From Escherichia phage AV115: DNA of 64,000 nt. The position numbers and the translations under genes are program-made. The stretch lies in the sequence record OR352945.1; one strand, given 5' to 3'. Under the pieces are notes generated by a model. The model saw nothing but the letters and a program-made list of their open reading frames with translations, was not told the origin of the DNA and ran no database searches. This document shows positions 47,215-53,130 of the stretch, piece by piece. How positions within the stretch are numbered: position 1 is the stretch's first letter; each line of letters begins with the position of its first letter.

Positions 47215-48230
47215 CATTATGTTCAGATAAGGTCGTTAATCTTATCCCGGAATTATATCCAGCTGCATGTCACCATGCAGAGCAGACTATATCTCCAACT
47301 TGTTAAAGCAAGTTGTCTATCGTTTCGAGTCACTTGACCCTACTCCCTAAAGGGATAGTCGTTAGGCATTTATGTAGAACCAATTCCACTTATCAGATTT
47401 TACACGGTAAGTAACTAATCCTGATGAAATTTCAAAATGTCTAGCCGCATCGGCTGCACATTCAAAAATAATCCCATCGCATGAAATCTTTTTGATGTTA
47501 GCTGGCTTTTTGCCTTTCATCTTTTCAGATAGTTTAGTTTTAGTTTTTTCTGAATGTTTGTGATTAAAGAACGGGTTATTTTCACCTGAACGTTTTCGGC
47601 ACTTTCCACAAGTATCGGCCGAAGATGGTATGCGAACACCGCATTTACAAAACTTGTGGTTTTCTGGATTCCATCGGCCATTTTTACTTCCGTGTTTACC
47701 ATAAAGAGCTTTCCGACCATCAGGACCAAGCTTAAGCATCTTAGCTTTAACAGTTTCAGCTCGTTTCTTAGCAATTTCTTCTTTTAATGGATGATTTGAA
47801 AGCACATCGCCAAAAGACGCATCAGCAATATTATATCCATTAATTTTAGAATTTAGCTCTTTAATCCAAAAATTTTCTCGTTCAATAATCAAATCTTTCT
47901 CATATGGAATTTCTTCCAGTATAGAGCATTCAAAAACATTACCATGTTTATTAAAAGACCTTTGAAATTTTATAGAAGAGTGAACACCGTTTTCAAGGTC
48001 TTTAAAATGTCTCTTCCATCTTTTCTCAAAATCTTTAGCACTTCCAACATACACTTTACCGTTTAAAGTGTTTTTAATCTGATAAATTCCGCTTTTCATA
48101 AACACCTCTTTTTATATAGAAGTATTTATTAAAGGGTAGTCCTACAATTTAGCACGGGATTGTCTACTAGAGAGGTCCCCCGTTTAGATAGATTACAAGT
48201 ATAAGTCACCTTATACCTAGGCCTAAATTA
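47215..48230 (-). mobile_element. group I self-splicing intron in td
   Basis: 1016 nt; 5' and 3' intron sequences as I recall the T4 td intron; exon 1 ends ...GGT. Confidence 0.93.
47362..48099 (-). CDS. I-TevI: intron-encoded GIY-YIG homing endonuclease I-TevI
   Basis: 245 aa from ATG 48099 (track GTG start at 48105); MKSGIYQIKNT...; GIY-YIG plus zinc finger. Confidence 0.97.
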   Translation of the reverse strand: MKSGIYQIKNTLNGKVYVGSAKDFEKRWKRHFKDLENGVHSSIKFQRSFNKHGNVFECSILEEIPYEKDLIIERENFWIKELNSKINGYNIADASFGDVLSNHPLKEEIAKKRAETVKAKMLKLGPDGRKALYGKHGSKNGRWNPENHKFCKCGVRIPSSADTCGKCRKRSGENNPFFNHKHSEKTKTKLSEKMKGKKPANIKKISCDGIIFECAADAARHFEISSGLVTYRVKSDKWNWFYINA

Positions 48231-48779
48231 ACCTAAGAAAACATCTACACTGCGTTGATACCATTGTAAATCAAGATGACCATTACGCACATTGAACTGA
48301 TAGAACATATGGCAAGGAGGAAGAGCCATTTGATTTATTTCAGCCGGATTCCAGGCAGAAACAATTTGACGACGATCAGTTGGTAATTTTTTAATACGGT
48401 CGATTGTTTCAACTAATTGGTCTACACCACCAAAATCACGCCATTGCTTACCATAAATAGGACCAAGTTCGCCGCTATGATATCCAAGGTCTTTTGCCTG
48501 ATTTTCATAGTTGTCGTCCCAAATAGTTTTACCTTGAATAAGACTACCATGAGTACGAATACGCAAATCATTAACATTGGTAGAACCAGACATGAACCAC
48601 AGTAACTCGGCAATACAAGCTTTCCATGCTAATTTCTTAGTTGTTACTGCAGGAAATCCTTTAGTAAGGTCCCAACGTAATTTAGTTCCGAACAGGGCAA
48701 TAGTGCCGGTACCTGTACGGTCGTCTGTTTCGTAGCCATTTTCTAAGATATCTTTAATCAGGTATTGGTATTGTTTCAT
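48231..48779 (-). CDS. td: thymidylate synthase, exon 1
   Basis: N-terminal TS with active-site region PPCH; 183 codons. Confidence 0.95.
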
Positions 48780-50159: not shown

Positions 50160-50177
50160 GGGAGACCGAAGTCTCCC
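50160..50177 (-). terminator. stem-loop GGGAGACCGAAGTCTCCC (copy 2), after gene 32
   Basis: Identical 18-nt hairpin, T-run on minus strand, followed by early promoter. Confidence 0.6.
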
Positions 50178-50183
50178 AATTTA

Positions 50184-51083
50184 TTATAGACCAGCTAACA
50201 GGTCATCGAGGTCACCATCGTCAGAAGACGAGGAACTCATGAAGTCATCTTCAGTTTTTGCAGAACCAAAGGCTTCCATGTCTTTATCAAAATCGTCAAG
50301 GTCAGAAGCAACTTTATCTGCAACAGAAGCTGCTGCGGCTGCTGCACCACCAAGAGCGGCAGTACCAAGAACTTGATTAAATTTAGTATTCAATTCTTCA
50401 AACGATTTGAACTTATCTTTAGAAGTCATTTCAGAAAGGTCGACCATTTGTTCGAACAATTCTTTCTGGAAAGATTCATCATCAATGTTTGGAATCGCAG
50501 ATTGATTCAGGAATTTAGATTCGTCGTAGTTACTGAAACCAGAAACCTGTTTAACTTTCAGCACAAAGTTAGCACCTTCCCACGGGCAAGTTACATCAAC
50601 AGGAGTTTCACCCATTTCAGTATCGACTGCAATCATTGCATTGATTTTGTCCCAAATCTTTTTACCGAAACGATATTTGAATACTTTACCTTCATTATCT
50701 GGAGCTTGAGGGTCTTTAACAACCAGAATATTAGCCCAATAAGAAGTTTTACGTTTCAGTTGAGAATATTCAGTTTTGTTGGTATTGTACAGGTCATTTT
50801 TACTAATGTACTGACATACAGGACAAGAGTCATAATCGCCGTGTGTAGATGAACAGGTTTCAATATACCATTTACCATTTTTCTTGAACCCGTGGTTAAC
50901 AAGAATTGTAAACGGAAGTGCGTCATCTGTTTTTGCCGGCAGGAAACGAATTACCGCTTGACCATTACCGGATGCATCGAGTTTCAGCTTCCATTCACCT
51001 TTATCTTCTGAAGAGAAACCTTTGTTACCATTCAGTTTAGCCATCTGAGCTGCGAGGTCTGCGGTACTTTTACGTTTAAACAT
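50184..51083 (-). CDS. 32: single-stranded DNA-binding protein
   Basis: 299 aa; near-identical to T4 gp32 (zinc site, acidic C-terminal tail). Confidence 0.97.
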
Positions 51084-51160
51084 TTTATTTGCCTTTATTT
51101 AGATTATTAATTAAATTTTACAGTTGGTTGCTACGACACTTATACCTCGTAGCTGGTATG
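51084..51160 (-). promoter_or_regulatory. gene 32 5' leader (putative autoregulatory translational operator)
   Basis: Long A/U-rich leader with repeated UUAAA/UAAA elements upstream of weak SD AAAGG. Confidence 0.45.
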
Positions 51161-51163
51161 ATT

Positions 51164-51171
51164 TATTTATA
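51164..51171 (-). promoter_or_regulatory. late promoter TATAAATA (gene 32)
   Basis: Plus TATTTATA ~80 nt upstream of gene 32 start. Confidence 0.55.
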
Positions 51172-51200
51172 AAGTAATTTTAACACACAAGAAATAAAGC

Positions 51201-51854
51201 TTAATACTTACATGATTTGATTGTTTCTATGAACAATTTCTTAGCAGCATTTCTATCGATTTGAAGTATTTTTCGATATGCCTTTAATTTGGTAGAATAA
51301 TTTTGCCAGACTAAGTTATCGGTGAGTTCGTCGTGCTTATCTATAATATTCAAAAACGAGTCCAACAATAAGAAAGTTTCAAATGAAATTATATTGCTTT
51401 GTAGCAATTTAAATATGTAGCTCGACTGAACGTTGTTATTATAATCAAATATCTCTTGAAGCGCACTAACTTCAACTTTCTTACTGAAATAGTAGATGTT
51501 ACGTACGTCTTCAGCAAACGTCTCCTTGGCTTGTTTGAGACGTCCAATATATTCCCTATAGAAAACTAATGCATCAGCGTCTGATATCTCACCAATCCAT
51601 GCGTCTTGGTTAGCAACTAAGTTGCTTATGAATATCAAGGTGAGTTCCTTCAATTTATATTTCTCTGCTAGTTTTTCAAAGAAATATTTATCTCGGCGTT
51701 TTTGATACGCATTATCCGAAACACGCATGCACCAGTTATATTTGATTACGTCATACCGACCACCAAAGTGGTTTTTGCACATCAAGTATAGTTTATATAC
51801 TGATTTTCCATTAATATAACGTTCTCCGTCAGGAGGCATGCGTATTTTAATCAT
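51201..51854 (-). CDS. 59: helicase loader
   Basis: 217 aa; close to T4 gp59. Confidence 0.95.
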   Translation of the reverse strand: MIKIRMPPDGERYINGKSVYKLYLMCKNHFGGRYDVIKYNWCMRVSDNAYQKRRDKYFFEKLAEKYKLKELTLIFISNLVANQDAWIGEISDADALVFYREYIGRLKQAKETFAEDVRNIYYFSKKVEVSALQEIFDYNNNVQSSYIFKLLQSNIISFETFLLLDSFLNIIDKHDELTDNLVWQNYSTKLKAYRKILQIDRNAAKKLFIETIKSCKY

Positions 51855-52530
51855 AGTTCCATCCAGGCCATTTTGAAGATTTAAGTCTATATGTAACTAA
51901 AGACGCAGAAATATTAAAAACATTTGAAACTTCTTTACACGAGGCGTATTTTACACCATCAATAATTATAGGTTTTTGTTTTTTAATAGTTCTTTCTTTA
52001 GAATGCGGCTTTGAATTTGCTATTCTAAGAGCTTCTTTGGTTGAATCAGGCATCGGCTTATTCGTTTTTCGCCCTTTTCGGACTTTACTCAAGGCCAATT
52101 TGTGAGCTTCAGATAGTTTCTTACCCTTATTAGGTGACGGTATTTTTCTTTCTAGTCTTGTTTTAGATACTTTAGCCTTAGTCTCTTCAGATCTAGGTTT
52201 ACCTAATTTAGAAAGTGAAATAGACCTTTTAGCTTCATCACTTTGTTTTTTACCAGGACCACCTTTACCACCGGGAACTAAGTTATAAGTATCATCTCGC
52301 AAAACAAAATCTTCATTAACCAATTCTGCTTCTTTTTTATAGGCGTCCTTGTCATTATCATATTCATAAAGAATTTCGGTATAAAAATTTTTTAGTCCAT
52401 ATTTAGCTTTGGCCGCTAATATAGCGCGGCCTGATCCAATATACCAATCTTTCTCTTTATGTTTTTTGTGTACGCCTATATAAATTTTACCATTTATTTT
52501 ATTGGTAGTTTTATACACAACGTATTTCAT
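51847..52530 (-). CDS. GIY-YIG homing endonuclease (Seg-like)
   Basis: 227 aa; VYKTTNKINGKIYIG motif, K-rich C-terminal half; ATG overlaps gene 33 stop (ATGA), 3' end overlaps gene 59 start. Confidence 0.8.
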   Translation of the reverse strand: MKYVVYKTTNKINGKIYIGVHKKHKEKDWYIGSGRAILAAKAKYGLKNFYTEILYEYDNDKDAYKKEAELVNEDFVLRDDTYNLVPGGKGGPGKKQSDEAKRSISLSKLGKPRSEETKAKVSKTRLERKIPSPNKGKKLSEAHKLALSKVRKGRKTNKPMPDSTKEALRIANSKPHSKERTIKKQKPIIIDGVKYASCKEVSNVFNISASLVTYRLKSSKWPGWNYD

Positions 52531-52865
52531 AATAAGAAATCTAGCGTATTAGTTTTTTCACCACGAGCAACTGATGGGCGAAGCATGTTTTCGTCAATTG
52601 CTTCGCTTGTAATTTTTTCAACAATTCCTGTAGGAATAAATTTAGCAAATTGTGTTTCTGGAATAGAATTTTCTTCCAAGAAAGCAGTTGTTGCTTCTAA
52701 ATAAGACATACCAAATTGTTCAACCATGGATTCGATAATGAATCCGTTTTCTTGACGGTCAAGCAATTTAGCGATATCATCTTTATCGTGTTTTACTGCT
52801 AATTCTTGTTCAGATAAACCGGCCTCATCAACCGGTTTAATATCACTTAGTGAAAACTGTGTCAT
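52527..52865 (-). CDS. 33: late transcription accessory protein
   Basis: 112 aa; T4 gp33 length and position. Confidence 0.9.
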   Translation of the reverse strand: MTQFSLSDIKPVDEAGLSEQELAVKHDKDDIAKLLDRQENGFIIESMVEQFGMSYLEATTAFLEENSIPETQFAKFIPTGIVEKITSEAIDENMLRPSVARGEKTNTLDFLL

Positions 52866-53130
52866 AAAGCTCGACTACCTCTTCGTTTTCAGCTTCAAAT
52901 TGGTCACGAGCGTCTTTATGATAAAGAGCTAACAAACGATTAAACATTTTTCCATCGACACCAAGCTCTTCTTTAGCACGAGTACGAATGTCTTTAATCA
53001 GTTCATTATAACCAGAAATTTTAAGTTTGTTATCGGAAGCTTCCTTGACTAGTTTAGCCAGTTCTTCACCATGCACATCTTGATTAAATTCAACTGCTTC
53101 TTTCTTAGCCATGTTTACCTCAGAATTCAT
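52843..53130 (-). CDS. dsbA: double-stranded DNA-binding protein
   Basis: 95 aa ORF (possibly 89 aa from second Met at ~53112); position between rnh and gene 33. Confidence 0.8.
   Translation of the reverse strand: MNSEVNMAKKEAVEFNQDVHGEELAKLVKEASDNKLKISGYNELIKDIRTRAKEELGVDGKMFNRLLALYHKDARDQFEAENEEVVELYDTVFTK

Follow-up and report, generated by a model that had tools for sequence, protein, structure and literature searches.

The segment from 51171 to 51081 on the minus strand of the DNA analysed here (the window, 64,000 nucleotides of Escherichia phage AV115, sequence record OR352945.1) is, with high confidence, the promoter-proximal control region of gene 32 of an RB69-type phage, including its autogenous repression. 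The element at the heart of this region is the T-even gene 32 translational operator, which is already known, and the finding is real but ordinary. Lying at 51159-51081 (minus strand), the element forms the leader of a gp32-family gene on the same strand; its 5' end carries, at the level of sequence, an H-type pseudoknot with a one-nucleotide loop 1, and this is followed by an unstructured A/U-rich tract that includes the ribosome-binding site, though without an exact UUAAA. The first-pass annotation of this DNA had proposed an autoregulatory operator homologous to that of T4 and suggested alignment with the T4 leader as a check. The alignment bears the proposal out: from the pseudoknot to the AUG, 53/76 positions are identical to T4 (25/31 in the pseudoknot, 28/45 in the A/U tract) and 69/76 to RB69 (31/31 and 38/45, respectively). 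The relevant reference system is RB69 rather than T4, and the spacer is an RB69-type UAAA/UUAA variant that lacks UUAAA.

For the window itself this is of little consequence, as the region is orthologous to a textbook site of autoregulation, and its close relative in RB69 has been characterised experimentally. It does provide a clean annotation (promoter, pseudoknot, linker, A/U tract, Shine-Dalgarno sequence and terminator) of a region that is unannotated in the GenBank records of these phages. The comparative by-products are possibly more useful, namely a perfectly covarying pseudoknot in at least eight lineages that was not found elsewhere, a Mosigvirus leader in which the A/U spacer shifts by repeat-like indels with the pseudoknot, linker and promoter frozen, and short lineage-specific repeats (ACUGU, AAUACA) that mark gene 32 leaders far outside the T-even phages. 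These bear on questions raised in a 2010 review (PMC3014915), of how gp32 discriminates its own mRNA from other single-stranded nucleic acid and how widely autoregulation has spread among T4 relatives.

The gene 32 locus and its transcription signals

Gene 32 is the regulated gene and also that of the repressor. Genes 59 and 32, both on the minus strand, are separated by 117 nt of intergenic sequence (51200-51084), gene 59 coming first in the direction of transcription, and the features of the locus are as follows.

50160-50177, minus strand: intrinsic terminator-like hairpin, GGGAGACUUCGGUCUCCC and then UUUUGAG (terminator scan)
50184-51083, minus strand: gene 32, encoding gp32, the single-stranded DNA-binding protein of 299 residues (ORF listing and Pfam PF08804)
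51164-51171, minus strand: T4-type late promoter box TATAAATA, -13 to -6 (exact match)
51177-51200, minus strand: candidate MotA-type middle promoter, GCTTTA (51200-51195), a 12-nt spacer and a -10-like TAAAAT (51182-51177) (read from the sequence)
51201-51854, minus strand: gene 59 (Pfam T4_Gp59_N and T4_Gp59_C)
52530-52865, minus strand: gp33 late coactivator (PF16805, E = 3.5e-26)
52846-53130, minus strand: DsbA, encoded, like gp33, just upstream of the control region

The reading frame at 50184-51083 (minus strand) matches the Pfam gp32 family (PF08804) with E = 4.7e-64. A near-identical gp32 had been claimed for this locus, which proves correct with respect to RB69, whose protein is identical at 297/299 residues (99%), but not with respect to T4, where identity is 89% over residues 1-268 and the C terminus has diverged. 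At the nucleotide level, Escherichia phage vB_EcoM_WFbE185 (Mosigvirus) matches the region with 100% identity, and RB69 matches it with 95% over 201 nt; the window is RB69-type Mosigvirus DNA. The terminator-like hairpin at 50160-50177 (minus strand) begins 6 nt past the gene 32 stop codon and marks the end of the transcription unit, and the annotation of WFbE185 places a putative terminator at the equivalent site.

Several neighbouring features were observed in passing. A free-standing homing-endonuclease-like ORF of 227 aa occupies 51847-52530 (minus strand), with gene 33 on one side and gene 59 on the other, and its ends run a few bases into both. An I-TevI-type DNA-binding domain (E = 3.3e-12) and a weak SegE-type GIY-YIG match are recognised in it, and RB69, T2 and T4 have no gene at that position. 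In T4, segG is found between genes 59 and 32 instead. The thymidylate synthase (td) ORF, 48228-48779 (minus strand), which sits at the left limit of the region listed, ends after 183 aa, a stop that may reflect the group I intron of T4 td.

The late promoter motif that the first-pass annotation had reported is present as an exact copy in the intergenic region, 81 nt upstream of the gene 32 AUG, and AATCAT comes next. T4 late promoters consist of an 8-bp TATA box at the -10 position, from -13 to -6, about one helical turn before the start; A/T-rich sequence adjoins the box downstream, and no -35 element is required (PMC2988020), and the sequence at 51171-51164 conforms to this definition of a gp55-dependent promoter. 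The motif is also enriched in the window, with 18 copies against 7.3 +/- 2.9 expected and none of 100 shuffles reaching 18, and only 4 of these 18 copies sit on the minus strand. It is unchanged in 7/7 Mosigvirus leaders, and exact copies are found 3-5 nt upstream of the pseudoknot described below in Serratia phage CHI14, L023 and Erwinia phage Cronus, and 17 nt upstream of it in T2. The phage encodes late transcription machinery, since the gp33 coactivator is present in the window upstream of the leader. We infer that the box would act as a promoter. Because the T4 late box spans -13 to -6 (PMC2988020), transcription is predicted to start at about 51158, which is the first or second nucleotide of stem 1 of the pseudoknot; a start at 51157 or further downstream would shorten stem 1.

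A second start site, of the MotA-dependent middle type, is a speculative reading of the sequence between 51200 and 51177 (minus strand), adjoining the gene 59 stop codon, and its naming relies on the MotA-box consensus. The T2-type counterpart reads TGCTTA, 12 nt and TATAAT, and in the T2-like Yersinia phage fPS-2 the equivalent site (L005, 1248-1270) is annotated as a 'predicted middle promoter'. The candidate is kept in 6/7 Mosigvirus leaders, with TAGAAT in mar009P5. A sigma-70 promoter scan returned 11 sites against 7.5 expected and was uninformative.

The leader pseudoknot

The leader opens with an H-type pseudoknot in which a 5-bp stem 1 and a 7-bp stem 2 abut and loop 1 is a single nucleotide. 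The complementarity was read directly and was also found by a scan, and its parts are arranged as follows.

51130-51159, minus strand: H-type RNA pseudoknot, proposed gp32 nucleation site
51159-51155, minus strand: stem 1, 5' strand, AUACC
51154, minus strand: loop 1, A
51153-51147, minus strand: stem 2, 5' strand, GCUACGA
51146-51142, minus strand: stem 1, 3' strand, GGUAU
51141-51137, minus strand: loop 3, AAGUG
51136-51130, minus strand: stem 2, 3' strand, UCGUAGC

An upstream pseudoknot had been anticipated; it exists, but it sits inside the span that had been described as leader, at 51159-51130, rather than before it. The hairpin of stem 2 alone folds at -10.7 kcal/mol in ViennaRNA (z = -3.0). 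For the complete pseudoknot, an equally good structure arises in 1.9% of cases when the intergenic region is shuffled by dinucleotides, and about 20 chance sites with the same architecture occur in the 64-kb window. Since this single-sequence significance is weak, the case for the pseudoknot rests on covariation and on its identity to that of RB69, which it matches at 31/31 positions. The RB69 pseudoknot has been probed with RNase V1, DMS and DEPC, and the region is sensitive to RNase V1 (PMC535899). Rfam contributed nothing in either direction: its library holds no family for the gene 32 pseudoknot, and a permissive search of 50900-51400 gave three chance-level matches, all on the opposite strand (E = 2.5-9.4).

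Covariation was assessed over ten variants from eight lineages, comprising the Mosigvirus sequence of the window, T4, T2, Klebsiella phage Marfa (L021), L035, CHI14 (L022), L023, Cronus (L029), Erwinia phage FBB1 (L112) and the Dhakavirus MX01 (L116), which were picked because a pseudoknot is visible in each. All ten carry the same architecture upstream of gene 32 with differing stem sequences. On a MAFFT alignment of the trimmed sequences, with the fifth pair of stem 1 left unscored, 110/110 base-pair cells pair and compensatory changes are seen in 9/11 pairs. None of 500 shuffles does as well, and sliding the 3' partners by 1-3 columns leaves 23-54% paired. The 3' strand of stem 2 of T2 is shifted in this alignment, yet it pairs in the shifted register too. 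The comparative evidence that the pseudoknot is real is decisive, and this sequence taken by itself would make a moderate case.

The same evidence disposes of the simplest alternative, that the region is ordinary A/T-rich sequence between two genes, in which TATAAATA and the complementarity arose by chance and which has no regulatory role. Phage intergenic regions are indeed A/T-rich, the count of short motifs in the tract (see below) is largely explained by composition, and pseudoknot-like complementarity of similar size recurs across the window, as noted above. However, chance does not account for perfect pairing with compensatory changes across eight lineages, nor for a pseudoknot, linker and promoter that are invariant in Mosigvirus while the neighbouring spacer varies by indels, and the RB69 orthologue is backed by direct experiments (PMC535899). 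We regard a chance spacer as scarcely credible and reject it as contradicted by the covariation and by the RB69 data.

The distribution of the pseudoknot appears restricted. A scan for the T-even architecture found none in the leaders of Karamvirus, Gelderlandvirus, Krischvirus FL38, JS98 and other Straboviridae. Scanning IMG/VR with a degenerate pseudoknot pattern gave 17 loci and no new variants, 10 being gene 32 leaders already in the set and 7 being chance matches that are unpaired and mostly coding. Two leaders missed by the T-even architecture scan, L033 and L034, contain a possible variant pseudoknot at about -80 to -25 of gene 32, with stem 1 AAUGA/UCAUU, stem 2 GGUGUAG/CUACAUC and longer loops (2, 5 and 11 nt).

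A further possibility is that a pseudoknot at the 5' end serves mainly as an mRNA stabiliser or processing boundary, which would shield the message from 5'-end-dependent decay and mark the limit of RNase E trimming. According to PMC3014915, T4 gene 32 mRNA is unusually stable, RNase E cleaves every species of it at -71, which is 4 nt short of the first pseudoknot position at -67, and cleavage 5' of the pseudoknot is conserved in T4 relatives. In the window, the predicted late start falls at the same structural boundary, and in three other lineages the box lies at the short distance given above. Nevertheless, expression in RB69 went up, not down, when elements of the pseudoknot were deleted, which is what an operator would predict (PMC535899), and the sequence 5' of the pseudoknot is AAAUCAU here against the T4 cleavage context GAAUUAU (at the place of the RNase E site, T4 has GAAUUAUGCC and the window AAAUCAUACC). 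We therefore consider a mainly stabilising function possible, although on the unlikely side, and it could be an additional role rather than one that excludes the operator. The predicted late start in this phage and the RNase E cut in T4 may each yield a message with the pseudoknot at its extreme 5' end.

The A/U-rich tract and the linker motif

Downstream of the pseudoknot, the operator continues as a short linker and an A/U-rich tract that runs to the start codon.

51084-51128, minus strand: unstructured A/U-rich operator tract (-45 to -1), where gp32 is proposed to bind cooperatively across the ribosome-binding site
51092-51096, minus strand: Shine-Dalgarno sequence AAAGG, 8 nt upstream of the AUG (51083-51081)
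51120-51129, minus strand: invariant single-stranded linker AACCAACUGU (conservation)
51124-51120, minus strand: ACUGU motif inside the linker (-41 to -37)

About 75 nt of leader had been described as A/U-rich, and this holds for the 45 nt of the tail and not for the rest. The whole 88-nt span is 74% A+T, its parts including the 31-nt pseudoknot segment at 52% and the tail (51128-51084) at 82%, the latter ranking at the 99.6th percentile when all 45-nt windows of both strands are compared. The absence of structure implied in the first pass is borne out by prediction for the part that binds the ribosome: the minimum free energy of the 45-nt tract in ViennaRNA is 0 kcal/mol (z = +1.1), and 200/200 shuffles fold at least as well. 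The Shine-Dalgarno sequence that had been called is likewise found, at 51096-51092, and AAAGG is kept in 8/9 aligned leaders, the two G's of pEK20 having moved by one column.

The repeated UUAAA and UAAA elements that had been reported are in part confirmed. The tract holds four UAAA (starting at 51120, 51101, 51097 and 51087) and two UUAA (51114 and 51110), but exact UUAAA does not occur within its 45 nt, and the only TTAAA copies in the vicinity lie outside it, one upstream of the late promoter (51183-51179) and one in codons 2-3 (51079-51075). Mononucleotide shuffles contain 2.9 +/- 1.4 of the UAAA/UUAA motifs and 3.4% of them reach six, as against 3.8 +/- 1.3 and 10% for dinucleotide shuffles; the count is modestly above chance and not significant once composition is considered.

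An A/U-rich tract of this kind could instead, or also, be the target of the general translational repressor RegA. SELEX with RB69 RegA gave AAUAAUAAUAAnA, that is, UAA triplets, and RegA sites are described as unstructured, A/U-rich and near the AUG (both PMC3014915); the tail contains seven UAA triplets, including UUAAUAAUCUAAAUAAA. On the other hand, gene 32 is not named among the RegA targets in the passages of the review that were consulted, gp32 itself has been shown to protect and repress the RB69 leader (PMC535899), and RegA sites need no pseudoknot, which is the best-conserved part of the leader here. RegA as the regulator in place of gp32, or alongside it, is thus very improbable in our view, and we retain the tract as a gp32 operator.

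Along the leader, conservation is uneven. In the seven Mosigvirus leaders compared, no change is seen in the late box, the pseudoknot or AACCAACUGU, and the length of the spacer from ACUGU to AAUCUAAAUAAAGG changes by -4 to +9 nt through repeat-like indels. The hot spot for indels of the repeat unit lies in alignment columns 89-105, at loci that include L006, L087, L120 and L121. In Tequatrovirus the number of UUAAA copies differs from phage to phage, T2 having two, T4 three and SG1 (L087) five. These repeat-unit indels suggest that slippage tunes the length of the operator spacer. An extra AAAUAAAUU-type unit was also seen in LNA2 and in mogra (L006, 1342-1375), where it is the annotated repeat_region.

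The linker is the other frozen part, with ACCAACTGT identical in the window, five other Mosigvirus, RB69, T4 and T2. We scanned the 80 nt upstream of gene 32 at loci L001-L035, L087-L093 and L111-L117 for ACUG(U/C), and found it in 36/39 distinct Straboviridae leaders at 1.6 per 80 nt against a background of 0.14-0.19, an enrichment of about 9-fold. Its usual form is AAAACUGU(U/A)AA. T4, T2, RB69 and the window each have one ACUGU, immediately 3' to the pseudoknot, and leaders in which the scan detected no pseudoknot (Karamvirus, Gelderlandvirus, JS98, LPCS28 and others) have two to four tandem copies of ACUG(U/C), 10-13 nt apart. In these tandem leaders some copies fall within the 3' end of gene 59, in differing codon phases. 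ACUG(U/C) is absent from the leaders of Krischvirus FL38 and L033/L034, and AAACTGT is not enriched across the whole window.

Distant environmental T4-like phages (L037-L086, IMG/VR contigs), whose gp32 is 37-45% identical, are without ACUGU and have arrays of AUAC(A/G) in the leader, mostly as AAUACA, at 3.1 per 80-nt leader against a background of 0.125. The spacing is typically 9-11 nt, as in L067 with copies at -69, -59, -50, -40 and -31; the gene 32 start codons of this group were guessed and the offsets are approximate. Literature searches for ACUGU with gene 32 returned only unrelated microRNA papers and no report of the pattern, and those on gp32 autoregulation in cyanophages and T4-like phages gave nothing on leader repeats, including AAUACA. 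A tentative suggestion, and one that we think will quite probably not hold, is that ACUGU is a sequence-specific element of the gp32 operator which has so far gone unremarked and which is both older than the pseudoknot and more widely distributed, and that lineage-specific repeats (UUAAA, AAAACUGU, AAUACA) co-evolve with the RNA preference of each gp32.

Proposed mechanism and comparison with RB69, T4 and T2

In the T4 model, gp32 nucleates on the pseudoknot and spreads cooperatively over the UUAAA/UAAA tract and the ribosome-binding site (PMC535899 and PMC3014915). Because the pseudoknot of the window is identical to that of RB69, the tail is 1 nt longer and the protein is 99% identical, we infer the same mechanism here with high confidence, and by analogy gp32 would bind the leader of this allele specifically and repress its own synthesis. 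Our own analysis contributes the sequence anatomy, the conservation, the covariation of the pseudoknot and a tail that lacks predicted structure. What comes from the RB69 system, whose operator is 91% identical to that of the window, is repression both in vivo and in vitro, together with structure probing and gp32 footprints.

We propose the following sequence of events. Late in infection, RNA polymerase directed by gp55, gp33 and gp45 would start at about 51158 from the TATAAATA box, and earlier read-through or middle transcripts from upstream would carry the leader too. The 5' end of the late RNA would be a compact H-type pseudoknot (5 bp plus 7 bp, with a single-A loop 1), followed by a 46-nt tail that would be single-stranded, very A/U-rich from AACCAACUGU onward, and would hold the Shine-Dalgarno sequence and the AUG. 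Free gp32 in excess of the available single-stranded DNA would first bind the pseudoknot and then spread cooperatively in the 3' direction over the tract, which would cover the ribosome-binding site and block the initiation of translation.

The closest characterised system is the RB69 gene 32 operator (Borjac-Natour, Petrov and Karam 2004, Virol J 1:4; PMC535899), which belongs to the same genus (Mosigvirus) and occupies the same position between genes 59 and 32. In RB69, expression rises about 4-fold when the leader is deleted or gp32 is mutated, the purified protein represses translation in vitro, residues A(-1) to A(-45) are hypersensitive to DMS and DEPC, i.e., single-stranded, and the gp32 footprint shows strong protection from U(-14) to G(-61) (PMC535899). 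The pseudoknot, the AACCAACUGU linker and the TATAAATA box are identical in the two phages and the repressor nearly so. The differences lie in the A/U tract, where 7/45 positions are affected by substitutions or indels (window AAAAUUUAAUUAAUAAUC, RB69 AAAUAAAUUAAAUAAUC): the tail is 46 nt in the window and 45 nt in RB69, the RB69 leader has one UUAAA and that of the window none, and AAAGGC and AAAUAAA in the window stand against AAAGGU and AAAUAUA in RB69. The U-to-C change after the Shine-Dalgarno sequence thereby removes one pair from the small AUCU/AGGU hairpin of RB69, which is predicted to form over the Shine-Dalgarno sequence and was proposed in PMC535899; none is predicted in the window.

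The T4 gene 32 site (McPheeters 1988 and Shamoo 1993, via PMC535899 and PMC3014915) has the same order of parts, with a pseudoknot from -67 and UUAAA/UAAA repeats. Overall identity between the two operators is 70%; the linker ACCAACUGU is identical, the context of the Shine-Dalgarno sequence and AUG is similar, and stem 2 is one compensatory pair apart (U-A to C-G). Stem 1 has 4 bp including a G-U pair in T4, as opposed to 5 Watson-Crick pairs in the window, and the T4 tail is 39 nt with three UUAAA rather than 46 nt with zero. No TATAAATA occurs within 140 nt upstream in T4. Its homology to the window begins just past the box, because the homing endonuclease gene segG is inserted between genes 59 and 32 in T4; the segG reading frame extends into the pseudoknot.

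The T2 pseudoknot, known from an NMR structure (2TPK; Holland et al. 1999, cited by PMC3014915), has the same H-type topology as that proposed here. Both have A as loop 1 and a 7-bp stem 2 abutting a 5-bp stem 1, and T2, like the window, is without segG and has an upstream TATAAATA. The two differ in the sequence of stem 1 (UGACC/GGUCA in T2, AUACC/GGUAU in the window), in the length of loop 3 (7 nt and 5 nt, respectively), in the tail, which is 34 nt in T2, and in the distance from the promoter box to the pseudoknot, which is 17 nt in T2 but only 4 nt in the window.
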